Assembly: GCF_000025925.1 (NCBI RefSeq)
Contig: NC_014033.1
Location: 2,310,001 to 2,342,000 of the forward strand
Reading direction: 5' to 3'
Source of the DNA: Xylanibacter ruminicola 23
GTDB taxonomy: Bacteria > Bacteroidota > Bacteroidia > Bacteroidales > Bacteroidaceae
Length of the DNA stretch: 32,000 bases
Made by a program: the position numbers and the translations under genes. Position 1 is the stretch's first letter. The number at the start of each line of letters is the position of its first letter. The notes beneath the pieces were generated by a model, which had not been told where the DNA came from, made no database searches, and worked only from the letters and a program-made list of their open reading frames with translations. Below, in pieces: positions 8,732 through 19,498 of the stretch.

Positions 8732-10063
8732 TTAGAAGTTCAAATCCTTACCTCGGTAGAACTCTAACAGGGCCTGCTGGTAGAGATTCTCGTATCGGGC
8801 CTGAACCAGATCCGACTCTGATTTCATATAATTATTCTTAGCCTCGTTAAACTCCGTGATAGTAGCTTTACCATTCTCGTACTTAGCCTGTACCAGATCG
8901 AAGGCATCCTTCGAACTCTTAACAGCCTCAGCAGAGCTCTGAGTCTTGGTCTGCGCATTCAGGGCATTATAGTACACCTGCTGAATCTCCTTATACAGGG
9001 TTTTCTTGGTGTTGTCGAGCTGCAGCTGCTGATTAGCCTGATCTACACGTGCACTACGAATGCGATTCCGGGTAGAGAAACGGTTAAAGATAGGCACACT
9101 CAGATTTAAGCCGATATACTGACTGAAGTTGTTCTCCAACTGCTTACCCAAACCATCTGACTTGAGACCTGAAGTGGTGTAGTAGTTAGTACCCAAACCG
9201 CCACTGAGCGAGAGTGTAGGATAGTAACCTGCCTGAGCAATCTTAATGCTATGAGCAGCACCCTTCAGTTTTAACTGCTGTGAGAGAATCTCTGGTTTGA
9301 TACCAAGCGCCTCTGCATAAACCTGATCAGGAGTAACAATATTAACCAGATTGGCAATCATATCCAAATCTTCTTTGGTTGGGCGATTAATTGCGAATCC
9401 CTCAGGTGTATCAAGTTCCAGCAGTTGGGTTAGCGTCAGGACGGCCAGACGCATATTGTTATCTGCCTGAGTAGCAGTCAGCTTACTGTTGGCCAGAGTA
9501 GCTTTCTGCTGTGAGAGTTCAACACCACTGGCCTTACCATTATCAACAAAAGCCTGAAGTCGAGCCACCTGAGCAGAGTCGATTTCAATCTGGCGATGAG
9601 CCACATCAGCCATCTCCATATCGTACAGAATCTGCACATAAGCCTGAGCCACCTGCATGCGGATATCGTTCTTAGCCTTCTCCAGATCAGCAGTAGCTGC
9701 TTCGAGATTCAGCTGATTCAGTTTAATCTGGTTGGGGATCTCGAAACCTGTGAACAAAGGTACACTTGCGCCCAACTGCAGCGATGTGCTACTGGTATTC
9801 TTATTGGTATAGGTATTATCCATTGTCAAACCACGTCCGAACGAGAAGTTCTGACTTACACTACCGCTCAAATCTGGCAAACGCGAGTTCTTGGCAGTAG
9901 AGAGTTGTATCTCCTGCTGGCGGCACTGGTTCTGCTGCTGCTTAATGCCGATATTATGCTCCACTGCATATTCACAGCATTCACGCAAGCCCCATGCCTT
10001 CTGGGCACTAGCAGTACCAAGGCCCAGCGAACCAATCATCAATGCAAAAACATATCTTTTCAT
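8732..10063 (-). CDS. TolC-family outer-membrane efflux protein
   Basis: The 443-aa ORF has a signal peptide and two repeated halves of coiled Q/A/L-rich helices plus beta segments, typical of OEP/TolC. It is the last gene of the efflux operon. Confidence 0.85.
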   Translation of the reverse strand: MKRYVFALMIGSLGLGTASAQKAWGLRECCEYAVEHNIGIKQQQNQCRQQEIQLSTAKNSRLPDLSGSVSQNFSFGRGLTMDNTYTNKNTSSTSLQLGASVPLFTGFEIPNQIKLNQLNLEAATADLEKAKNDIRMQVAQAYVQILYDMEMADVAHRQIEIDSAQVARLQAFVDNGKASGVELSQQKATLANSKLTATQADNNMRLAVLTLTQLLELDTPEGFAINRPTKEDLDMIANLVNIVTPDQVYAEALGIKPEILSQQLKLKGAAHSIKIAQAGYYPTLSLSGGLGTNYYTTSGLKSDGLGKQLENNFSQYIGLNLSVPIFNRFSTRNRIRSARVDQANQQLQLDNTKKTLYKEIQQVYYNALNAQTKTQSSAEAVKSSKDAFDLVQAKYENGKATITEFNEAKNNYMKSESDLVQARYENLYQQALLEFYRGKDLNF

Positions 10064-10069
10064 AATCGC

Positions 10070-11182
10070 TTATTTTTCATTATCGTCTGTAACAATCTCT
10101 GGGCCACGTACCTTATCCTTGGCAGTTATACCCTTCTTAATCTCAATGTTCACACCGTCAGAGAGACCTGTTTCAACAAAAGTGCGATCGTAGGTTTTAT
10201 TTTTGCCTTTACCTTTGATCACGTAAACAAAGGTGCTGTCGCCACTAAACTCGATGGCGCTTTCTGGGATGCAGAGCACCTTGTTGGCCTTGTCCAACAC
10301 GATTTCGGCATTAGCACTGTAGCCAGAACGGATTTTTCCACCCTCTACAAGTTTTACAGCTGCCTTAATCTCAAACTGGTTGGTTCCGTTGCTCTCGATA
10401 GCCTTTGGCGAGATGTATTCCAATGCAGCATCAAACTTCAGGTCCTGCAGGGCACCAATCGTAATTTTCATATTCATGCCGTTAACCAACTGTCCTACCT
10501 CAGTCTCATCGATATTACCACGGAAAATCAAATCCTTCATATTAGCCACTGTGGCAATCGTGGTACCATCGTTAAAGGTATTCGACAGGATAACCGAATT
10601 ACCCACCTTAACAGGGATATCGAGAATAACACCGCTAATGGTAGAACGGATGAGAGTTGAAGAAGCTTTAGCATTCGACTTCGACACACCATCGCGCACC
10701 ACTTCGAGAGCATCCTGTGCAGCCAGCTTTTCGTGCTTGGCCTGATTCAGGCTAATCTTAACCTTATCAAACTCATCAGCACTCACCAGTTTCTGGTTAA
10801 AGAGGTTCTGCTCACGCTCGAAATCAGTCTGAGCCTGCTTCAGGTTGATCTCAGCCAGACGTACACGCATCTCAGCACTCGACAGCTGGGCCATATCAGG
10901 AATCACCTTAACCTTAGCTATCACATCGCCAGCGTTCACATAGTCGCCAGGCTCTTTCAACAATTCTGAGATGATACCAGAGATCTGGGGTTTGATATTC
11001 ACCTCGTTACGGGGCTCAATCTTACCTGTAATAATGGTGGTTTTCTGGATGCTGTCGAGCTTTGGAGTAAACTCGTTGTAAACAACTTCCTTGGGCTGGC
11101 TCTTCTGCCACAGGAACACGAATGTTCCGATGAAAATCAACGCGATAATAGCGGCGATAATCAGTTTGCTGTACTTTTTCAT
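10070..11182 (-). CDS. Periplasmic adaptor (membrane fusion protein, MacA/HlyD family)
   Basis: The 370-aa ORF has an N-terminal TM anchor, a lipoyl-like motif (GDYVNAGDVIAKV), a coiled-coil hairpin and beta-barrel domains. Confidence 0.85.
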   Translation of the reverse strand: MKKYSKLIIAAIIALIFIGTFVFLWQKSQPKEVVYNEFTPKLDSIQKTTIITGKIEPRNEVNIKPQISGIISELLKEPGDYVNAGDVIAKVKVIPDMAQLSSAEMRVRLAEINLKQAQTDFEREQNLFNQKLVSADEFDKVKISLNQAKHEKLAAQDALEVVRDGVSKSNAKASSTLIRSTISGVILDIPVKVGNSVILSNTFNDGTTIATVANMKDLIFRGNIDETEVGQLVNGMNMKITIGALQDLKFDAALEYISPKAIESNGTNQFEIKAAVKLVEGGKIRSGYSANAEIVLDKANKVLCIPESAIEFSGDSTFVYVIKGKGKNKTYDRTFVETGLSDGVNIEIKKGITAKDKVRGPEIVTDDNEK

Positions 11183-11226
11183 ACTTCTTATAGTTTTTAT
11201 TATTATATTCTATATTTTTGCTAATT

Positions 11227-12471
11227 TTACTCGTCTCTCATTGCGTCTACCGGTTTAATGCTCATGGCTCGAGCGGCAGGGGCTAATCCAGCTAACAAGC
11301 CAAGCGAGCTTACGATAAAGGCGCAGAATATAGCCGTCCAGAAGGTCACCTGGAAGTGAATACTCACGATGCCATCTTCTGTATTGGCCATTTCGAGCAT
11401 CTGCAGTATCATGACGGCAAACAGGATGCCGCTCATACCCGCCACAAGCGTTAGCACAATGCTCTCGCTGATAATCTGCGATAGGATCATCTTAGGGGTA
11501 GCACCGATGGCACGACGGATACCGATCTCTGTGGTACGTTCCTTAACCGTTACCATCATGATGTTCGACACGCCTATGGCACCAGCCAAAAGAGTTCCAA
11601 GACCAACCAACCAGATGAGGATATTCACACCCTTAAACAGATTATTAATCAACTGGAACATCAGTTCGGTATTAAATACAAACACCCCTTGCTCGTCAGT
11701 AGGATCCACATAGTGCGCTCTGGCCACCGTCTCACGGATACGTGGTGTGATTTTACTCATCAGCACACCTGGGCGACCAATAGCAGCAATGACGTCAACG
11801 GCGTTACCACGATTAAAGGCTGCCTTCATCATCGTGATGGGAATGGTGACTCTTTCTTCTGATCGACCACCAATAGAAATACCGCCTGCACTATAATCGA
11901 CACCCACCACCTCGTAATAGGTGGAATCCACACGTATTTTCTTTCCGCAAGGGTCGCCACCTTCCTTAAACAGGTCCTTGTAGATTTTTTTACCAATCAC
12001 GCACACCTTGCGTTGTTCCTGTATGTCCATCTCGTTGATGAAACGACCGTAGTACATCTTTGGTGCGATGATTTTCACCATCTCAGGCACGGCACCCTGC
12101 ATATTAGGTGTGGTCTTCTGGTCGCCATAGTAGGCCGTCGAGCCACGTCCCATCAGGATAGGAGCTACAGCTTCCAGTTCAGGAATCTGCTGTTTCAGGC
12201 GTTCCACATCCTTATAATCCATATACCAGCTACGCCCTTTACGGAACCCTTTATAGGGTTTCGAGGTCTGCTCGGCACCAACAATCACTGTATTCTGCGC
12301 AAAGCCTTCGAAATTGCTATACAACTTCTCCTTCACGCCCTTTCCGCCTCCCATCAGGGCAACAAGCATAAACACGCCCCAGAACACACCGAAACCGGTG
12401 AGGAACGAACGCGACTTGTTTCGCGTCAGCGTGTCGATGATTTCTCTGTATGAATCTATATCCAGTCTCAT
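11227..12471 (-). CDS. MacB/FtsX-family ABC transporter permease
   Basis: The 414-aa ORF has TM1, a large periplasmic domain and a C-terminal FtsX 3-TM bundle (VKERTTEIGIRRAIGA). Confidence 0.85.
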   Translation of the reverse strand: MRLDIDSYREIIDTLTRNKSRSFLTGFGVFWGVFMLVALMGGGKGVKEKLYSNFEGFAQNTVIVGAEQTSKPYKGFRKGRSWYMDYKDVERLKQQIPELEAVAPILMGRGSTAYYGDQKTTPNMQGAVPEMVKIIAPKMYYGRFINEMDIQEQRKVCVIGKKIYKDLFKEGGDPCGKKIRVDSTYYEVVGVDYSAGGISIGGRSEERVTIPITMMKAAFNRGNAVDVIAAIGRPGVLMSKITPRIRETVARAHYVDPTDEQGVFVFNTELMFQLINNLFKGVNILIWLVGLGTLLAGAIGVSNIMMVTVKERTTEIGIRRAIGATPKMILSQIISESIVLTLVAGMSGILFAVMILQMLEMANTEDGIVSIHFQVTFWTAIFCAFIVSSLGLLAGLAPAARAMSIKPVDAMRDE

Positions 12472-12502
12472 TTGACTATTTCACTATTTACGATTTTACA
12501 AT

Positions 12503-13759
12503 TTAATCTGCGCGAAGTGCCTCAATGGGGCGGATTCTACTTGCTTTATAGGCTGGAATAAGTCCTGCGATAGTACCTGCAATCACCATCACCAGTGTGG
12601 CCTCGATACAAACATCCAGTCCCACGGTAGGGTTAACAAACAGTGTAAGCTTCTCAACTCCCAGGTCGGTAACCTCATGCCCCAGCGTTGCGTCCATATA
12701 CTCATTAGCAAACACACCACACAGCATACCTACGTAGCCAAACAGGGTGGTGATAATAACACTCTCGACAATAATCAGTCGCAGGATGCTCCAAGGCTTT
12801 GCACCAATAGCCTTACGGATACCAAACTCGTGGGTGCGCTCCTTAACGGTGATGAGCATGATATTACTTACGCCCACGATACCAGAGAGCAGTGTGAAGA
12901 GTCCGATGACCCAAAGGAAAGTATGGATGATATCTATTCCTTTCTCCATCTGCTGGCTTTGAGCATAGTTATTCCATATCCAGATGCCGCGATCATCCTC
13001 AGGGTGAATCTGGTGCATACCATTCAGTCGGCGACGATAGTCCTTCTCAAAGGCCTCGTTGGCATCCTCAGAGGTCAATCCCTTAAACGTAAACTCGATG
13101 CTGCCCAGACTAGGTGTATCGGCGCCATAAATACTCTTGATCGCAGTGTAAGAAGAATAGGCTCTGCCATTACCTTCGCCACGGCTCTTGTAGATGCCAA
13201 CAACCTTGAACGAGATATCGCCCACCTTGATATACTTGCCCAACAACGTTTTATAGTCCTTAGGTTCCAACTCCTTAGCCTGGTTATCACCGAGCACAAT
13301 CACCTTACGGCGATCCTTCAGGTCGATATCATTAATGAATCGGCCACACAGCATGTGCTCTTTGACAATCTTGGTATGAATAGGATGCACACCTGCGATG
13401 CGGATATTCATGTAGTTCTCGCCATAGCTGGCAGTGCCACTGGTAAAATAGTTGGCTCCCACCTCGTCAATATTCTCAGTAAACTCTGTCCGAGTGGCTT
13501 CCAGGTCCTTCACGTTCAACTGTATATCGCGCCCTTCCTTCAAGCCTTTATAGGGCATCGAAGTCCAACCGCCATCAACCTCCATCGAGTTGGTCAGGAA
13601 GTCGCCGTTCATCTTCATCGTGGCATTGATGAGACCGTTTCCGGCTCCCAACAGCACGATGATCATAAAGATGCCCCACGCCACAGCAAATCCCGTGAGC
13701 GTAGTACGAAGTTTATTCCTTCGCGCTGTCTGCCATATTTCAGTTATTATATCGTGCAT
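12503..13759 (-). CDS. MacB/FtsX-family ABC transporter permease (paralog)
   Basis: The 418-aa ORF has the same architecture and motif (VKERTHEFGIRKAIGA). Confidence 0.85.
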   Translation of the reverse strand: MHDIITEIWQTARRNKLRTTLTGFAVAWGIFMIIVLLGAGNGLINATMKMNGDFLTNSMEVDGGWTSMPYKGLKEGRDIQLNVKDLEATRTEFTENIDEVGANYFTSGTASYGENYMNIRIAGVHPIHTKIVKEHMLCGRFINDIDLKDRRKVIVLGDNQAKELEPKDYKTLLGKYIKVGDISFKVVGIYKSRGEGNGRAYSSYTAIKSIYGADTPSLGSIEFTFKGLTSEDANEAFEKDYRRRLNGMHQIHPEDDRGIWIWNNYAQSQQMEKGIDIIHTFLWVIGLFTLLSGIVGVSNIMLITVKERTHEFGIRKAIGAKPWSILRLIIVESVIITTLFGYVGMLCGVFANEYMDATLGHEVTDLGVEKLTLFVNPTVGLDVCIEATLVMVIAGTIAGLIPAYKASRIRPIEALRAD

Positions 13760-13769
13760 AATCTTTATT

Positions 13770-13840
13770 CTTTTGCAACGGACTACAGGACTTTACGATT
13801 TTTCCTTAGTCATTAAGTCGTGTTGTCCGTTGCTAAAAAT
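13770..13840. repeat. REP-like imperfect palindromic element inside the efflux operon
   Basis: The inverted arms gcaacggac (13775-13783) and gtccgttgc (13825-13833) extend to a stem of about 21 positions with 3 mismatches. One arm matches 30555-30585 at 24 of 26 positions. Confidence 0.75.
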
Positions 13841-13841
13841 A

Positions 13842-14561
13842 CTACTTCATTAAACCTCCGCTGCCAAAAGGACTAGCATTATGATCGAGATTCTCTTCTA
13901 TCTGACCTATGACACCATCCTTGATATGTACAATCTTGTTGGTTTCATTAGCCACACCGCTCTCATGAGTTACCACTACGATGGTCATGCCATCCTCTTG
14001 GTTCAGCTTCTTCAGCAGCTGCATCACCTCCACAGATGTCTTCGAGTCGAGTGCACCTGTAGGCTCATCGGCCAGGATAATCTGTGGACGGGTGATGAGT
14101 GCTCTGGCTATTGCCACACGCTGTTTCTGTCCTCCCGACAGTTCGTTGGGGTAATGTTCGGCCCAATCGGCCAAGCCCAGCTTATCCAGATATTCCATCG
14201 CCATCTGGTGACGCTTCTTTCTGGATACCCCTTGGTAGAATAATGGCAACTCAACGTTTTCCACGGCGGTCTTGAAAGAGATGAGATTAAAGCTCTGGAA
14301 AATAAAACCTATCATCTTGTTGCGATACTCGGCAGCCTTACGCTCTGAGAGGTTCCAGATGGGAGTTCCGGCGAGCTCGTAGCTCCCTGAGTCGTAGTTA
14401 TCCAGAATACCTAAGATATTAAGCAGCGTGCTCTTACCCGAGCCCGAAGCACCCATGATGCTGACGAACTCACCCTTTGCGATGTCGAGCGAGATACCCT
14501 TCAGCACATGCAGTGGCTGGGCACCCTGATAGGTCTTGTTGATGTCTTTTAAATGTATCAT
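13842..14561 (-). CDS. ABC transporter ATP-binding protein (MacB/LolD-type)
   Basis: It has Walker A GASGSGKST, signature LSGGQKQR and Walker B ILADEPTGALD. Confidence 0.9.
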   Translation of the reverse strand: MIHLKDINKTYQGAQPLHVLKGISLDIAKGEFVSIMGASGSGKSTLLNILGILDNYDSGSYELAGTPIWNLSERKAAEYRNKMIGFIFQSFNLISFKTAVENVELPLFYQGVSRKKRHQMAMEYLDKLGLADWAEHYPNELSGGQKQRVAIARALITRPQIILADEPTGALDSKTSVEVMQLLKKLNQEDGMTIVVVTHESGVANETNKIVHIKDGVIGQIEENLDHNASPFGSGGLMK

Positions 14562-14602
14562 TGTTATTTATAACTTAGTTTATTTGTATGTTTTGACGTA
14601 GC

Positions 14603-14965
14603 TTACTCGCCAAAAGTTGCATTATATGCATTTTTAACATCTTCTAACGTGATGCCTAACAGCTGCATCTGGCGGAATAATTCTGGCAGTCGCTCTTTCA
14701 CGAACTCCTGCTTGCGCGCCTTCAGAATCTGCTGTTTGGCACCTGGAGTAACAAAGTATCCCAGTCCACGCTTGTTGTAGATGATTTCCTCGCGTGCCAA
14801 CTGTTCATAGGCTTTTACAGCGGTATTAGTATTCACCTCGAGCAGCACGGCATACTCACGTACGCTGGGGATGCGATCATCGTCTTTATATACACCCGAG
14901 AGGATCTCCTCGCACAGCCTGTCGGCCATCTGGATGTAAATCGGTTTATCATTTGTAAAAGTCAT
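14603..14965 (-). CDS. GntR-family transcriptional regulator, YtrA-like short subfamily
   Basis: The 120-aa ORF has a winged HTH (IPSVREYAVLLEVNTNTAVKAYEQLAREEIIYNKRGLGYFV) followed by only a short helical tail. Confidence 0.85.
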   Translation of the reverse strand: MTFTNDKPIYIQMADRLCEEILSGVYKDDDRIPSVREYAVLLEVNTNTAVKAYEQLAREEIIYNKRGLGYFVTPGAKQQILKARKQEFVKERLPELFRQMQLLGITLEDVKNAYNATFGE

Positions 14966-15794
14966 AATTCAACCACTTATTAGTTATTAATTCAAATCCT
15001 TTGAAGATACGGAACGATAACCAGTAATTTACAACAGAGAAGACAGCGAAGAATGCTGTAAGTACATAGGTCATGGCACCAACCCCCTCTTCCATCACAT
15101 CAGCTGTATAGTAAGTATAAAACATGCTTCCGCCATGATGACGCTTAAACCATACAAATGCTGTAATGCCTGCCACAAGTACAATGCTACTGATTACGAA
15201 TGCATACTTGCGGAACAGCGTGCCACCAAGGGTATAGAAAGAATGCAACCATACGAGTCCACTCACCAGAAATGCCAGAGACATCAGGCGATAACCCAAT
15301 GAATGATATGAACTTATACCATCAAATGTCATCATCTTAACCACTTCCGGAAAAACAAACGAATTCCACGAATCACCATAGAACAGAGCACGGAACACTA
15401 CACGCAGCGTATCGCCTACGATAAACGACAGGTGCATCGTCAGGAATCCACATACAGTAGAGAATATGGTGGCTGCCAGAAACTTCTCTAAGTTGGTAGC
15501 AGGCAGCATCAGGAATGCCTGGCGATTTGGTTTCTTATCCAGCTCGACAAACAGGTTACAAATACCTGCCACTACACCAATAATGATGAAAACCACAAAG
15601 AATCCAGCCAGGCCACCAGTATGGGTTCCTACAGGTTCTGTAGAACGGAATATGCCCAACACCATCATCTCCCCCAAGAAAACACCCAGTATGAGTGTCA
15701 AGGCCCACATCAGCTTCGAGTGCATGTTTACACTGATCATCCAGCGCAAAGCCTTTCCAAATCTATTAATATCGAAACTATTCATAACTTTCAA
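14949..15794 (-). CDS. Six-TM membrane protein of unknown family, putative permease partner of the ABC ATPase
   Basis: The 281-aa ORF has about 6 hydrophobic segments. It is a paralog of the upstream gene, sharing motifs INRFGKALRW, LMLPATNLEKFL and VNYWLSFRIF. Confidence 0.7.
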   Translation of the reverse strand: MKVMNSFDINRFGKALRWMISVNMHSKLMWALTLILGVFLGEMMVLGIFRSTEPVGTHTGGLAGFFVVFIIIGVVAGICNLFVELDKKPNRQAFLMLPATNLEKFLAATIFSTVCGFLTMHLSFIVGDTLRVVFRALFYGDSWNSFVFPEVVKMMTFDGISSYHSLGYRLMSLAFLVSGLVWLHSFYTLGGTLFRKYAFVISSIVLVAGITAFVWFKRHHGGSMFYTYYTADVMEEGVGAMTYVLTAFFAVFSVVNYWLSFRIFKGFELITNKWLNYDFYK

Positions 15795-16591
15795 ATGTTT
15801 ACAAATTTACCAATGTTCTGAGTGCGGCAGAAAATCCTGTACGACAACCAGTAGTTAACGATGGCCCAAATGCCGTAAACGGCATCAGAGATATGAAGCA
15901 GCGTAATAGCATCACCGTGAATCATATCAAACTGATTTTCGTAAGAAATAGGGAACAACCATGTTTGTACCATCGACAAGAAGATGAGCACCAATAAGGT
16001 GAAAATCCACGAGTACTTGTGCGAACGGAAGAAGGTGGCACCAAGGGCGAAACACGACTGAAGCCAAAGAAACAAAATAATCAGGGCATTAATAACCGTA
16101 ACCTTCTTTGAGCCAATGGCTTCCCAATTAACAGTGAAAGGATTTAAGCGACCGAACAGAGCGCCTGTTACAGACTGCGGATTGTTACCTATCAGCCAGT
16201 TAAAAACATACTGCACCAAGTCGGCTCCAAAATAAGCTACAACTATAATACCTATTACAAAAATCCAAGTGGCATAGCGCATCAGGTATTTCTCGAAATT
16301 CGAGGCTGGCAACAACAACAGAGCCTGCATATCGTGTTTCCCTTTCATGCTGTTAAACATCATCGCTGGGCCTAAGGCTACTTGAATAAAAAACATCATC
16401 ACCACAACCACGCAACAAGGTTTATAACCTGTATCAGCACCTTTCAGCCAATAAAAGCTGGTAGTAAAAAACAGGAACACCAGCGTAAGAAACACAAACA
16501 TCTGGAGCAGCGAGCGCATGTAGTAGCTCTTGTCGTTAGTGAGCGACCAACGAGCCACCTTTGCAAACCTATGTATATTAAACTGTATCAT
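15791..16591 (-). CDS. Six-TM membrane protein of unknown family (paralog)
   Basis: The 266-aa ORF has about 6 hydrophobic segments and motifs IHRFAKVARW, LLLPASNFEKYL and VNYWLSYRIF. It overlaps the next gene by 4 nt (ATGA). Confidence 0.7.
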   Translation of the reverse strand: MIQFNIHRFAKVARWSLTNDKSYYMRSLLQMFVFLTLVFLFFTTSFYWLKGADTGYKPCCVVVVMMFFIQVALGPAMMFNSMKGKHDMQALLLLPASNFEKYLMRYATWIFVIGIIVVAYFGADLVQYVFNWLIGNNPQSVTGALFGRLNPFTVNWEAIGSKKVTVINALIILFLWLQSCFALGATFFRSHKYSWIFTLLVLIFLSMVQTWLFPISYENQFDMIHGDAITLLHISDAVYGIWAIVNYWLSYRIFCRTQNIGKFVNI

Positions 16592-16610
16592 AAGATTTAA
16601 TGTTTAATCT

Positions 16611-17426
16611 CTAAATTTTACCCTCGTTTACAGCATTAAACAGCAACTCCAAATTAACCTGAGTTTCAGCACTATCCTCCTTGCGTGGTGCAATCACAGC
16701 ATTACCCTGAAGCGAAGGCTCGGCATAAAGCACATCGTCCATCTCGGCAGGTGTGCGATACTCAAAAGTAAACTTCTCCTGGATATCAGCCACACTGGCA
16801 TTCAGCAACAGCTTCTGTGGACTCAAGATAAGGATATGATCCAACAGCGATTCCACATCGTGCACCTGATGGGTTGAGATTATCAGCGTGCGATCGCCAG
16901 TCATATACTGGGTAACCACCTTACGGAACTGACTCTTCGAAGGGATATCCAGTCCGTTGGTAGGCTCGTCCATCAGTAGCACACGGGTGTTGGTAGCCAA
17001 GGCAAAGGCCATAAACACCTTTTTCTTCTGTCCCATCGAGAGGGCATTCAGTTTCAGGTCGGTGGTCAGTTCAAAATCCTTCAGACAGCCCTCCAGAACG
17101 GTTGTGCTGAACAAGGGATAGAAGGGGCGGTTGATCTTTACATACTCATCGAGCGACATAGCGGGCAGGTCGAACTCCTCAGGAACGATAAAGATATCCT
17201 GCAGTGTTTCAGGGCGGCGCAGTTTGGTCTCGATACCATCAAAGCTTACAGTACCCTTCTTGGGGCGCAGCAGTCCAGCAATCAGGTAAAGCAGTGTACT
17301 CTTACCTGTACCGTTCTTACCCAGCAGACCATAAATATTATCCTGCTTCAGTTCCAGACTGAAATCATCGAATACCAGGTTCTTACCACCTGCGTACTTA
17401 AAACTGATGTTGTTTACCTCGATCAT
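16611..17426 (-). CDS. ABC transporter ATP-binding protein (YtrB-like) with a C-terminal extension of about 60 aa
   Basis: It has Walker A GKNGTGKST, a degenerate signature LSMGQKKK, Walker B LLMDEPTNGLD and an H-loop STHQ. Confidence 0.9.
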   Translation of the reverse strand: MIEVNNISFKYAGGKNLVFDDFSLELKQDNIYGLLGKNGTGKSTLLYLIAGLLRPKKGTVSFDGIETKLRRPETLQDIFIVPEEFDLPAMSLDEYVKINRPFYPLFSTTVLEGCLKDFELTTDLKLNALSMGQKKKVFMAFALATNTRVLLMDEPTNGLDIPSKSQFRKVVTQYMTGDRTLIISTHQVHDVESLLDHILILSPQKLLLNASVADIQEKFTFEYRTPAEMDDVLYAEPSLQGNAVIAPRKEDSAETQVNLELLFNAVNEGKI

Positions 17427-17464
17427 AATTCTATTTAATTTTAATGTTCAATGTTACGTGTTAT

Positions 17465-17488
17465 AGTGTACCACTTTAATAGTACACT
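17465..17488. promoter_or_regulatory. Candidate GntR/YtrA operator: inverted repeat AGTGTAC-N10-GTACACT
   Basis: The 7-bp perfect arms are 17465-17471 and 17482-17488. The site lies immediately downstream of the minus-strand -7 box and 39 nt upstream of the ATG of the ABC operon that encodes the GntR regulator. The GT..AC half-sites fit the GntR family. Confidence 0.5.
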
Positions 17489-17489
17489 G

Positions 17490-17497
17490 CAAAAGTA
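17490..17497 (-). promoter_or_regulatory. -7 promoter box (TActTTTG) for the ABC/GntR operon
   Basis: The plus strand reads caaaagta, which is tacttttg on the minus strand, 64 nt upstream of ATG 17426. Confidence 0.5.
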
Positions 17498-17598
17498 GAA
17501 TAAAAACAAATACGCTCCAAGCTTTTATGCAAAAATCTGCAATCTATTAACACTATTTAGCACTTCAACCCTCACGCGTACATAACTAATAAACAGGG

Positions 17599-17661
17599 AG
17601 ATAGTACGGCACTATCTATGAGATACTCGTAACTTATCTGGTAGATATCCGGCACTTATCT
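17599..17661. repeat. Three tandem 19-bp palindromic sites AGATA-N9-TATCT at an exact 22-bp period
   Basis: The sites are 17599-17617, 17621-17639 and 17643-17661. All six half-sites are perfect and every spacer is exactly 9 nt. Confidence 0.9.
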
Positions 17662-17678
17662 GCCCACGAAGTTACGGT

Positions 17679-17737
17679 TACTATTAATGGTAGCGATTGC
17701 TACATTTAATGGTAGCAAAAATTCCCATTAATGGGAA
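17679..17737. repeat. Three ATTAAT-centred palindromic sites at an exact 22-bp period
   Basis: The sites are tactattaatggta (17679-17692), ctacatttaatggtag (17700-17715) and the perfect 16-bp palindrome ttcccattaatgggaa (17722-17737). Their centres are at 17685.5, 17707.5 and 17729.5. Confidence 0.85.
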
Positions 17738-17750
17738 CAATGGCAGCACA

Positions 17751-17936
17751 GTGTAACACTGTAACATACGACAGGAGAGAGAAAAAATATGGTCAAGATA
17801 GAACAAGTAATAGCTTATAAGATTATTTATATATTATAATATATAAATAATTAATATATAATATTATTATAATAATAGATATTATACAACCATGACCAAA
17901 CTTTTTTTCGTTCCTGTCGTAAAATTAACGTTACAC
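17751..17936. repeat. 186-bp imperfect inverted repeat enclosing an extremely AT-rich palindromic core
   Basis: Arm pairs are gtgtaac (17751-17757)/gttacac (17930-17936), a perfect 10-mer tacgacagga (17767-17776)/tcctgtcgta (17912-17921), and tggtca (17790-17795)/tgacca (17893-17898). The core 17815-17886 has 70 of 72 positions A/T, with a perfect 30-bp palindrome (17822-17851) and a 16-bp palindrome (17862-17877). Confidence 0.9.
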
Positions 17937-17961
17937 TCTTGGTAGATTGAAATATTTTTTG

Positions 17962-17969
17962 TACCTTTG
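17962..17969 (+). promoter_or_regulatory. -7 promoter box (TAccTTTG) for the 470-aa P-loop gene
   Basis: The context is ttgtacctttgcag, 26 nt upstream of ATG 17995. Confidence 0.6.
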
Positions 17970-17994
17970 CAGTGTAATCTTAAAAGACTGAATA

Positions 17995-19407
17995 ATGACA
18001 AAAGAGACTAACTTAAATGACCGTTCAATCATCGAACGACAGATGCTATTCGCAGGTAAAGAAATCGAGAAGCTGATGGATGTATATCCCTGCTTACGCG
18101 AGGTGTGCAAGGGCCTTAAAACCGAGGCCTACCCTGCTGCTATGTTTGCATCGTCGGCCTTCCTGGGTACGCTGATGACACGTTGTACCTATCGTTTTTA
18201 CCATCGCCCTCAGGAGTTGCGTCGCCTCAACTATAGCGTGTTCATCATTGGCGACCCTGGTTCAGGAAAATCGTTTGTAACCAATCTCTACGAACTTTTA
18301 GCCGGTCCTATCCGCAAAGTATCTAAGGAGGGGCAGAATGCCGAGAATCGCTATCGTCGCAAATACAAGGAGTGGCTGGACAACGGACAGAAAGGCGATG
18401 GCCCCAAGAAGCCCCAGGTAATTATCCGTACCCACCCTGCCCGTACATCCAACAAGGTGTTTATCGAAGACATGAAGCATGCCGTTGAGATGGTGGATGG
18501 CCAGGAGATGCACCTGCACATGCTCTCGTTCGACACAGAGCTCGACAATGCCATCAATCAGCAGGGCGAGGCATGGAGCAACAAGACCTATCTGGAATTG
18601 AAGGCTTTCCACAACGAGGAGGATGGACAGTTCTTCTCGAACTACGACTCAGAGCTTTGCGACTTCAATGTGTTTTGGAACTTTGTTTATACAGGCACAC
18701 CCCGCGCTCTGAAAAACAAGGTGAATGCCAACAACGTAGGCAATGGATTCTCAACCCGACTGGCAGCTATTCCCATGCCCTCAACCCACTTCGAGATGCT
18801 GAAACGTGAGGAGTTGGAAGATGCGAACGTAGAGCCTGAGGAGCACAAAACCCTGCGCATGTGGGCCGAGCGATTAGACTCTACCCATGGCGAACTGCCC
18901 ATTGGCAAACTGGTAGAAAGCACCTACGAATGGGCCAAGGAGCACATGGAAGAAGCCGAGGAGGACCAGTCGAAAACCGACGAACTGTTGCTTAAGCGTG
19001 TACCCTACTATGGCATCGCCGTAAGCGTACCTTTCATTATGATGCGCCATTGGGATGAGTGGCAGCAGCACCACACCCTCACTCTCGACGACACCGACCT
19101 GTACTTGTGCCGTTTGGCCATGAACATCCAGTTCGCATGCCAGCGCCATTTCTTTGGCAAATACTGGGATTACTACTTTATGCAGCAGGCTAACTGCATT
19201 AGCTATCCCACCCGCAAGCGCCACACCAAACTGATGCGTTCGCGTTACAGTGTTCTACCTGATGAATTCAGCGTGCCTTCCATGCAGATATTCCTAGGCG
19301 TGTCCCAGCGTACCGCCGAAAAGATGATAGAGCGCTGGCTCAACGATGGCTACATCAAGCGCATAGAACCCGGCAGGTACCAGAAATTATATCTCGAGCT
19401 AACATAA
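17995..19407 (+). CDS. Orphan P-loop NTPase with a C-terminal winged-helix-like domain (family uncertain; possibly DUF3987/SF3-helicase-like)
   Basis: This 470-aa ORF has its own promoter. It has Walker A GDPGSGKS (aa 86-93), a candidate Walker B LHMLSFDTE (aa 174-182), and a C-terminal HTH-like segment FLGVSQRTAEKMIERWLNDGYIKRIEPGRYQK. The ORF call is solid; the functional assignment is tentative. Confidence 0.75.
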   Translation: MTKETNLNDRSIIERQMLFAGKEIEKLMDVYPCLREVCKGLKTEAYPAAMFASSAFLGTLMTRCTYRFYHRPQELRRLNYSVFIIGDPGSGKSFVTNLYELLAGPIRKVSKEGQNAENRYRRKYKEWLDNGQKGDGPKKPQVIIRTHPARTSNKVFIEDMKHAVEMVDGQEMHLHMLSFDTELDNAINQQGEAWSNKTYLELKAFHNEEDGQFFSNYDSELCDFNVFWNFVYTGTPRALKNKVNANNVGNGFSTRLAAIPMPSTHFEMLKREELEDANVEPEEHKTLRMWAERLDSTHGELPIGKLVESTYEWAKEHMEEAEEDQSKTDELLLKRVPYYGIAVSVPFIMMRHWDEWQQHHTLTLDDTDLYLCRLAMNIQFACQRHFFGKYWDYYFMQQANCISYPTRKRHTKLMRSRYSVLPDEFSVPSMQIFLGVSQRTAEKMIERWLNDGYIKRIEPGRYQKLYLELT

Positions 19408-19498
19408 TTGCTTATTGCAATTAAACTTTCTACCACTTACAACATCTAAGATTTACAGCATTATCTAACAATTACAACTATATCAAACAAACAGTGAA

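Follow-up and report, generated by a model that had tools for sequence, protein, structure and literature searches.

A palindromic A+T-only element between inverted bipartite arms upstream of a DUF3987-type helicase gene in Xylanibacter ruminicola 23: a putative replication-origin-type site

Background

Origins in which inverted initiator sites surround an AT-rich unwinding element are already known. In this work, we focused on a 186-bp inverted repeat of Xylanibacter ruminicola 23 (positions 17751-17936 of a 32,000-nt stretch, i.e. 2,310,001 to 2,342,000 of contig NC_014033.1, hereafter the window), which may be a site of this kind for the product of the gene that follows it, a 470-aa stand-alone helicase of the DUF3987 type. 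The closest described systems are those of the Staphylococcus aureus pathogenicity islands (SaPI), whose Rep helicases bind iterons via a C-terminal winged helix; on the two flanks of an AT-rich region these iterons have opposed orientations, and self-loading of two hexamers is thought to occur there (PMC9371898). DUF3987 is the predicted helicase of mobile-element primase fusions, where it stands in place of MCM, DnaB or RepA (PMC5862659), and one study demonstrated that a PriCT-DUF3987 protein from Bacteroidota is an oligomeric helicase of 5'-3' polarity, placing it in superfamily 6 (PMC11724360). We found no mapped origin for any DUF3987 helicase in the literature that was searched.

Three further groups of origins are of comparable design. 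In archaea, the winged-helix AAA+ protein Orc1/Cdc6 is encoded beside an origin in which inverted origin recognition boxes (ORB) lie around an A/T-rich DNA unwinding element. At the origins recognised by the large T antigen of simian virus 40 (SV40), papillomavirus E1 and UL9 of HSV-1 (herpes simplex virus 1; oriS/oriL), inverted sites flank an A+T palindromic centre, and a double hexamer or dimer assembles and melts this centre. In iteron-bearing theta plasmids of the lactococcal pCI305 type, the origin lies upstream of rep and combines direct repeats of 22 bp with an AT-rich stretch and with an inverted repeat that touches the rep promoter and provides autoregulation; none of these Rep proteins is a helicase, and they rely on DnaA and DnaB.

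Organisation of the element

The repeat lies in a 568-bp intergenic gap between two divergent genes, 73 nt upstream of the 470-aa open reading frame (ORF; 17995-19407, plus strand). A preliminary description, drawn from the letters alone, had reported its arms and palindromes, and all coordinates and sequences proved exact on re-checking; it missed the main point, namely that repeat and downstream helicase gene form a unit.

The left arm (17751-17795, plus orientation) is composed of three heptamers (TGTAACA at 17752-17758, TGTAACA at 17760-17766 and TACGACA at 17767-17773), an A-tract (17782-17787) and a box B, TGGTCA (17790-17795), the third heptamer being the beginning of a 10-nt box A, TACGACAGGA (17767-17776). 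The right arm (17893-17936, minus orientation) is its mirror image, with box B as TGACCA (17893-17898), a T-tract (17902-17908), box A as TCCTGTCGTA (17912-17921) and an outer GTTACAC (17930-17936) that pairs with GTGTAAC at 17751-17757. The three pairs of the preliminary description (outer 7-mers, 10-mers and TGGTCA/TGACCA) are thus all present as claimed, and the two inner ones form a single 29-nt bipartite unit (17767-17795 versus 17893-17921) with 24 of 29 positions matching, which a repeat search lengthens to 40 nt at 75%. Folded as single-stranded DNA (ssDNA), the 186 nt reach -27.6 kcal/mol, compared with -11.0 +/- 2.5 for shuffles (z -6.6).

Between the arms lies a core of 97 nt with 11% GC (17796-17892), and inside it the A+T-only block (17815-17886), where the 2 G/C in 72 nt and the perfect palindromes of 30 bp (17822-17851) and 16 bp (17862-17877) were found again. 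This block is the lowest-GC 72-mer of the window (0.028 versus a mean of 0.476, sd 0.079); the extreme local anomaly noted earlier is borne out, on a background nearer 48% than the 50% GC first assumed. By nearest-neighbour energy, no other 61-mer of the window is as unstable as 17826-17886 (z 6.05; runner-up 3.9), and when the perfect palindromes of the 32 kb are ranked by length, the top three (30, 16 and 16 bp) all fall within this one intergenic region. The palindromic feature is far beyond chance, as shuffling of the 97-nt core never produced a 30-bp palindrome (0/5000). With a perfect inverted repeat in the least stable, A+T-rich context, the core is proposed as a candidate DNA unwinding element, predicted from its sequence to be able to extrude a cruciform.

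Immediately after the right arm comes the predicted promoter of the helicase gene (17937-17969, plus strand): TCTTGGT, with a -33-like TTG at 17939-17941, abuts the arm directly, and the -7 box TACCTTTG occupies 17962-17969. The assignment of -33 and -7 elements follows the consensus of Bacteroides promoters. The promoter is conserved and lies outside the inverted repeat, as had been noted for its -7 box: TCTTGGT and TACCTTTGCA are unchanged among X. ruminicola strains, and a T-rich stretch plus GTA[CAT]CTTTGCA precedes every gene of the 470-aa type. A sigma-70 promoter scan, whose model does not cover Bacteroidota promoters, gave promoter-like sites not above shuffles. Since the right arm touches the -33-like TCTTGGT, autoregulation is likely too; the left arm is about 190 bp from the promoter.

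The adjacent helicase gene

The helicase gene (17995-19407, plus strand) encodes a stand-alone DUF3987-type AAA+ protein (superfamily 6, MCM-like) with a C-terminal winged helix-turn-helix (wHTH), without the BT4734-like primase domain of its ~800-aa relatives. Public records label it "hypothetical" or "DUF3987 domain-containing", and the Pfam match to DUF3987 is weak (E 2e-4). An AF2 model built with 26 homologs (pLDDT 77, pTM 0.76) was searched with Foldseek, which retrieved phage DUF3987 primase-helicases (E 2e-12, TM up to 0.58) and, in the PDB, exclusively MCM subunits among the 50 matches listed (E 5e-5, probability 1.0, TM 0.34-0.40). As these TM-scores to MCM are low, "MCM-like" here designates an AAA+ protein of the superfamily 6 type and not orthology. 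In the model, three helices and a beta-hairpin make up the final 60 residues, a wHTH predicted with confidence, and residues 423-468 match wHTH models of the AbiEi type. This weak, domain-level match was all that PADLOC gave, and a defence system was rejected on that ground.

Walker A (G86-S93) and Walker B (D180/E182) are invariant, and dN/dS (the ratio of nonsynonymous to synonymous substitution rates) is 0.02-0.09 in unsaturated comparisons, i.e. strong purifying selection; the gene is therefore functional and no relic. The closest relatives (53-98% identity) are 468-472 aa long, and at ~50% identity the family extends to proteins of ~800 aa that carry a BT4734-like primase domain at the N-terminus. 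Neighbour-joining places the 470-aa proteins in a clade of their own, within which a single fusion protein of 813 aa is nested. The latter (P0056, locus L103) has a helicase half 59% identical to the window protein and no upstream palindrome at its locus; it may be a recombinant of a chromosomal cassette and a mobile-element gene.

No relatives were detected by tblastn in PLSDB (72,556 plasmids) or INPHARED (50,697 phage genomes). In IMG/VR none of the 470-aa type was found, only two ~800-aa relatives; PHROGs and NCBIfam gave no match for the protein, and sequence searches of the PDB returned nothing significant. An identity as plasmid or phage Rep was rejected on the basis of these null tblastn, PHROGs, NCBIfam and PDB sequence searches.

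Distribution and conservation of the layout

Loci of the 470-aa type were collected from genomes and metagenomes (L001-L009, L014-L021 and L105-L110). With near-identical sets counted once, they comprised 11 independent loci with complete upstream DNA, at 53-99% protein identity. A metagenome scan with the protein alignment yielded almost solely ~800-aa relatives, and these were used as a negative control.

Ten of the 11 independent loci share the same order, i.e. left arm, A+T-only core, right arm, promoter and start codon. Across these ten, the A+T-only core measures 46-70 nt and the block lies ~160-240 bp upstream of the start codon, from which the right arm is separated by 38-84 nt with the promoter in between. 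The perfect core palindrome is 30 nt long in the window, 28, 50, 52, 50, 38, 38, 52 and 52 nt in eight relatives and 14 nt in L009; the relatives' palindromes of at least 28 nt were reached by 0-1 of 5000 shuffles. Indels and substitutions affect the core even between close strains, and the sequence of the palindrome changes by lineage while its A+T-only palindromic character stays in place. The recurrence of the same layout in relatives shows selection at work, and not chance.

The cassette site is syntenic with the window in strains of the X. ruminicola group, among which strain D31d encodes a protein 99% identical to the 470-aa protein of the window. In other species, the gene is a singleton amid unrelated housekeeping genes, and its neighbours there include lysS/gpsA, secDF, bamA/SpoU, a Pif1-like helicase, a giant UvrD-like protein and a PIN toxin. 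Toxin genes adjoin the cassette in L008 (WHH nuclease toxin) and L105 (the PIN toxin).

In ~690 kb of fetched Prevotella DNA, A+T-only blocks with long perfect palindromes were confined to loci of the 470-aa type, with the exception of L010. The same locus was the one exception among ~85 genes of the ~800-aa type that were examined, the extreme A+T palindrome being missing upstream of all others. At L010 (2820-3030), a 38-nt A+T palindrome, ATAGATTATATATATTATATATAATATATATAATCTAT, has four copies of CTACATTA on one side and three inverted copies of the TAATGTAG type on the other, and lies 1.5 kb upstream of the gene of a 956-aa BT4734_N-DUF3987 primase-helicase. Judging from its sequence, we regard L010 as a second family of the same design.

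Iterons of 21-22 bp accompany several of these loci. In the window, three tandem iteron-like copies of 20-22 bp (GAGATAGTACGGCACTATCT, ATGAGATACTCGTAACTTATCT and GGTAGATATCCGGCACTTATCT; 17598-17661, plus orientation; period 22 in Tandem Repeats Finder) precede the left arm, and their cores TACGGCA, TCGTAAC and CCGGCAC resemble box A; within this region, TACGGCAC and ATCT..AGAT are unchanged among X. ruminicola strains. Arrays are likewise found upstream of the left arm in L004, L008 and L009, and after the gene in L005 (7494-7547), L014 (6436-6491) and L015 (6422-6517). Copy number ranges from 2 to 4.4 and is not constant even among near-identical loci (L015 has 4.4 copies, L017 has 3). That the iterons occur in permuted positions could be a trace of a small circular ancestor that was opened at different points. 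Recent mobility, considered because L015 and L017 encode the identical protein P0037, was rejected: both lie at the same chromosomal site, the difference being an indel that affects an adjoining HAD gene.

Concerted change of the arms

Arms were aligned on their invariant GACA, and the resulting consensus reads box A T[AT][CG]GACA[GAC][GA]A, an A-tract spacer and, ~22 nt on, box B [GCT][GAT][TC]CA. One or two extra box-A-like heptamers often stand outside, as in TGTAACA C TGTAACA TACGACA (window) and GGGACAA ACGACAA TACGACA (L019). L107 and L108 carry two right arms in tandem.

Arm identity is 51-55% between lineages and averages 70% within a locus, with a maximum of 42/48. Over 12 loci and 48 positions, 76.4% of the cells pair, compared with 63.3% after shuffling (0/500) and 36-44% with slid partners, and the arm covariation score is 0.392 versus 0.189. 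Where boxes A and B vary, the changes almost all compensate each other, and the spacers pair less; such box-centred compensation suits two protein sites better than one continuous stem. Constraint on the boxes was also seen in a comparison of X. ruminicola strains with saturated synonymous sites (dS ~1.9): CATACGACAGGA, TTGGTC, GTGACCAAACTTTTT and TTCCTGTCGTA are invariant, and in this comparison core and flanks vary while the boxes are fixed.

On the protein side, the recognition-type helix of the wHTH reads [QK]R[TN]AEK in 8/8 loci with a TACGACA box and [QP]S[TN]A[ED]K in 3/3 loci with a TTGGACA box. This R/S change tracks the type of box A and is suggestive of a co-change of protein and DNA.

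Comparison with described systems

The locus resembles SaPI Rep/PriRep systems in that an origin-like site composed of inverted repeats and an AT-rich centre has next to it the gene of a presumptive AAA+ helicase-initiator whose C-terminus is a winged helix. Two traits of an origin of SaPI or, more broadly, of phage-inducible chromosomal islands (PICI) are present here, namely a neighbouring helicase gene whose product has a winged-helix DNA-binding domain and, in ten of the 11 loci, short repeats in opposed orientation around an AT-rich region (2.8% GC in the window). It differs from SaPI in its helicase family (here DUF3987/MCM-like), in the position of the element (upstream of the gene, whereas the SaPI origin is downstream), in its arms (bipartite units of 29-45 nt in place of runs of penta- or hexamers), in its core (a perfect A+T-only palindrome) and in the lack of an island, as integrase, primase, repressor and packaging genes are absent here.

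With the BT4734-like primase-DUF3987 modules (e.g. AgaPP/AgaPH, Seonamhaeicola), the 470-aa cassette shares homologous helicase domains, at ~50% identity to the ~800-aa Prevotella fusions, and iteron arrays near the genes, which among these modules were seen in L104 and L010. Unlike them, the 470-aa clade has lost the primase domain and its cassette is in no recognisable mobile element. The other parallels are more distant. Orc1/Cdc6 is a loader and not a helicase, has no sequence relationship with the 470-aa protein and serves cellular chromosomal origins; the palindromic viral origins belong to eukaryotic viruses with helicases of superfamilies 3 or 2, and the resemblance is an analogy only; and, in contrast to pCI305-type replicons, the 470-aa protein has no homolog among 72,556 plasmids.

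What is new here is the pairing of a candidate origin-like site with a DUF3987 helicase, a strictly A+T, perfectly palindromic centre kept as a structure during sequence turnover and, above all, a primase-less and integrase-less single-gene cassette that persists under purifying selection in many rumen Prevotella chromosomes.

Interpretation and rival explanations

We read the 186-bp repeat, by analogy with the systems above, as inverted initiator sites around an unwinding element, i.e. a putative replication-origin-type site for the adjacent helicase, and give this reading a probability of roughly 0.55. Mirror-image sets of boxes, a readily melted and cruciform-prone centre, additional iterons and a neighbouring AAA+ helicase gene with a winged helix all agree with such an origin. 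The repeat would be the cis half, and the gene of the DUF3987 helicase, which would load itself, the trans half, of a two-part cassette, and occupancy of the repeat probably also autoregulates the promoter. Each arm would be a bipartite recognition site made up of box A (T[AT][CG]GACA), an A-tract and, about two helical turns off, box B, with both boxes read by the C-terminal winged helix of the helicase. Because the arms face each other, protein assemblies would load head-to-head on either side of the A+T-only core. The unwinding element would be this core, which of all DNA in the region melts, or extrudes a cruciform, most easily, and occupancy of the right arm beside the -33 region would autoregulate the helicase gene. 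Anatomy, conservation, concerted arm change, a protein fold with intact ATPase motifs and purifying selection were observed; from them we infer that the boxes are bound by this protein, that the core melts and that replication, or another DNA transaction, would start there in the present-day chromosome. Among the roles suggested in the preliminary description, that of an unwinding element or cruciform fits with a core that is the least stable DNA of the window and keeps its character in 10 of 11 loci.

Several points weigh against this reading. The eleventh locus, L021, keeps the arms around a spacer of just 54 nt at 30% GC and has no A+T core, and in L018 an intact gene is preceded by a right arm only, with no core before the contig end (1-217). 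As L107 (1-130), L108 (1-150) and L109 (1-70) start in or just after the core, assemblies break at the palindrome, and the apparent losses in L018 and L021 may therefore be artefacts. The core palindrome is displaced from the symmetry centre of the arms by 4-23 nt. The near-perfect arms of some loci (41/43 in L009) could also be explained by hairpin-templated homogenisation, and the correlation between the R/S change and the box type may reflect just one or two evolutionary events. Moreover, no primase, integrase or other mobile gene lies within the 32 kb and no plasmid or phage relative was found, so that an active replicon is not obvious; SaPI/PICI-type origins reside in an excisable island or replicon, whereas the cassette does not, its other loci being singletons amid housekeeping genes. 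A chromosomal origin that fires would be unusual and possibly harmful.

A more specific proposal, which we consider unlikely as it stands, is that of a minimal module for replication initiation, either domesticated or free-riding, in which a single helicase and a palindromic loading site of its own are kept by selection in Prevotella chromosomes and act in trans or in situ. Three modes of action are possible for such a module: DnaA-independent local replication amplifying neighbouring variable genes; life as a minimal satellite that uses the primase of a resident or invading primase-helicase element; and defence through interference with the replication of such elements. If the proposal is true, the permuted 22-bp iterons would go back to a circular ancestor of ~2 kb whose opening point varied.

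The arms might instead be operators and nothing more, i.e. autoregulatory sites bound either by the helicase through its winged helix or by a regulator of the host, with the A+T core as a flexible or curved spacer for looping or silencing, and with neither unwinding nor a replication start. This is possible, at odds well short of even. It would account for a right arm abutting the invariant -33-like TCTTGGT, for concerted arms, which suit any dimeric or symmetric DNA-binding protein, for the absence of primase or replicon partners, for the gene-only variants that seem to exist (L018 and L021) and for a wHTH like that of the AbiEi autorepressor. It leaves unexplained an A+T-only core of 46-70 nt that keeps palindromes of up to 52 nt despite sequence turnover, as well as the 22-bp iteron arrays and the invariant ATPase motifs; the distance of ~190 bp from left arm to promoter and the same layout in L010, which is found 1.5 kb from a primase-helicase gene and not at a promoter, also speak against it. 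A second alternative places the structure itself in the foreground: the whole 186 nt would act as one hairpin or cruciform whose arms are alike through palindrome-perfecting template switching, for instance in single-strand initiation, in recombination or in resolution, or it would be what is left, frozen in place, of an insertion that had hairpin ends or resembled a miniature inverted-repeat transposable element (MITE). The strong ssDNA fold (z -6.6) is in line with this, and so are arms that are 83-95% complementary in every locus (near-perfect, spacers included, in L009, L004, L006 and L008), a homology between the close relatives L005 and L006 whose start coincides exactly with the left arm's outer end, and a MITE-like size with terminal repeats. 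The complementarity is, however, centred on the boxes, with less of it in the spacers, the arms and the core palindrome do not share a centre, and the linkage to one gene is constant across 53-99% protein identity, the element keeping a fixed distance from that gene and diverging along with it. Dispersed or orphan copies were absent from the window, from ~720 kb of related DNA and from IMG/VR: the box A 10-mer has no exact copy in the 32-kb window beyond the two arms, an nhmmer profile of the arms retrieved gene-linked pairs alone from the ~720 kb of Prevotella DNA at E<0.01, and the inverted-repeat pattern had 0 matches in IMG/VR. Visual inspection of the ends in the window, L008 and L009 revealed no target-site duplication, the true ends being uncertain, and no transposase, HUH nuclease, protelomerase or recombinase is encoded nearby. 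We hold this structure-driven explanation of the repeat to be doubtful, and the MITE suggested in the preliminary description is not borne out. Identification as a protelomerase target, hairpin telomere, HUH site or transposon end was rejected in the same way, a fitting enzyme being absent from the whole window.

Two other explanations are very improbable. Bacteroidales genomes are rich in invertons, and inverted 10-mers do flank a short segment here, so that a site-specific invertase could in principle flip 17777-17911 at the 10-bp repeats, as the preliminary description suggested, and cause phase variation. This idea was not supported: the promoter lies beyond the segment, the 32 kb encode no invertase or other recombinase, and a single orientation was found in the four assemblies of the X. 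ruminicola group and in three other sets of near-identical loci. The segment is in addition nearly symmetric, and flipping would therefore alter little; the conserved parts are two boxes per arm and not a crossover site, and the layout is tied to a helicase gene and not to a phase-variable surface locus. That the gap is oriC or another landmark of host replication is equally hard to credit. Gene directions do split there (minus strand over 8732-17426, plus strand from 17995), and GC skew is more negative to its left than to its right. Against this, no DnaA box (TTATCCACA, <=1 mismatch) occurs in 17427-17994 and such boxes are not enriched in the window (11 versus 7.5 expected), neither dnaA nor dnaN is nearby, and in other species the cassettes lie between co-directional or convergent genes in unrelated neighbourhoods.

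Genomic surroundings

On the minus-strand side, the gap is bordered by the gene of an ABC ATPase, the first of a cluster of the GntR/ABC/MacB/HlyD/TolC type. On the plus-strand side, the 470-aa ORF is followed in order by genes for a GH3 glycosidase, NAD kinase, DJ-1, IspD and RecG. Domain annotation of the 32-kb window revealed no integrase, transposase, invertase/recombinase, phage or conjugation genes, no HUH nuclease or protelomerase, and no primase or other mobile-element gene beside the helicase, only housekeeping genes. The window has no tRNA and no Rfam match at gathering scores, and an identity of the element as a known RNA or tRNA was rejected accordingly.

Between the iterons and the left arm, a set of palindromic motifs (17683-17738) comprises TTAATGG/GCTAC..GTAGC and ATTAATGGTAGC, GCTACATTTAATGGTAGC and TTCCCATTAATGGGAA, the last of which (17722-17737) is a perfect 16-bp palindrome. 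These motifs are found in the window and in L001-L003 and are missing in L004 and L009; TTTAATGGTAGCAAA of this set occurs again upstream in L007. They possibly lie outside the core unit. A terminator scan detected a single terminator-like hairpin, at 17721-17738 on the minus strand, upstream of the repeat. The repeat search also revealed a 30-nt inverted match at 83% between 17475-17504 and 17955-17984, which lies outside the palindromic element and arises because two divergent promoters of the Bacteroidota type are present, TACTTTTGCAGTGTA on the minus strand for the ABC operon and TACCTTTGCAGTGTA on the plus strand for the helicase gene.

Within the GntR/ABC operon, two ORFs without Pfam match (281 and 266 aa; 14949-16591, minus strand) are only 35-49% identical to their counterparts in KHT3 (L004) and RUG765 (L009), all neighbours being 85-97% identical; from their sequences they resemble a hypervariable pair and have perhaps undergone recombinational replacement. 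Between the helicase gene and the GH3 gene, a gene with Sel1 repeats and a caspase domain (Peptidase_C14) is inserted in L004 (7513-10327), where a Kinase-PolyVal gene follows it, and in L009 (7508-10592); the cassette therefore borders a variable islet. In the window, the corresponding 91-bp gap contains an imperfect 19-nt repeat, ACAATATCTAACAATTACA, in 2.7 copies (19439-19490), which may be a degenerate counterpart of the downstream iterons of other lineages.

Conclusions

DUF3987 helicases are among the commonest replication proteins of the mobile elements of Bacteroidota. Short-read assemblies break at the A+T palindrome, and counts of such elements in metagenomes are therefore likely too low. 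The cassette is a compact and testable pair, made up of one protein and one ~190-bp site, and its natural box variants, together with a candidate specificity residue in the winged helix, would allow the recognition and opening of DNA by an MCM-like helicase of bacteria to be studied.

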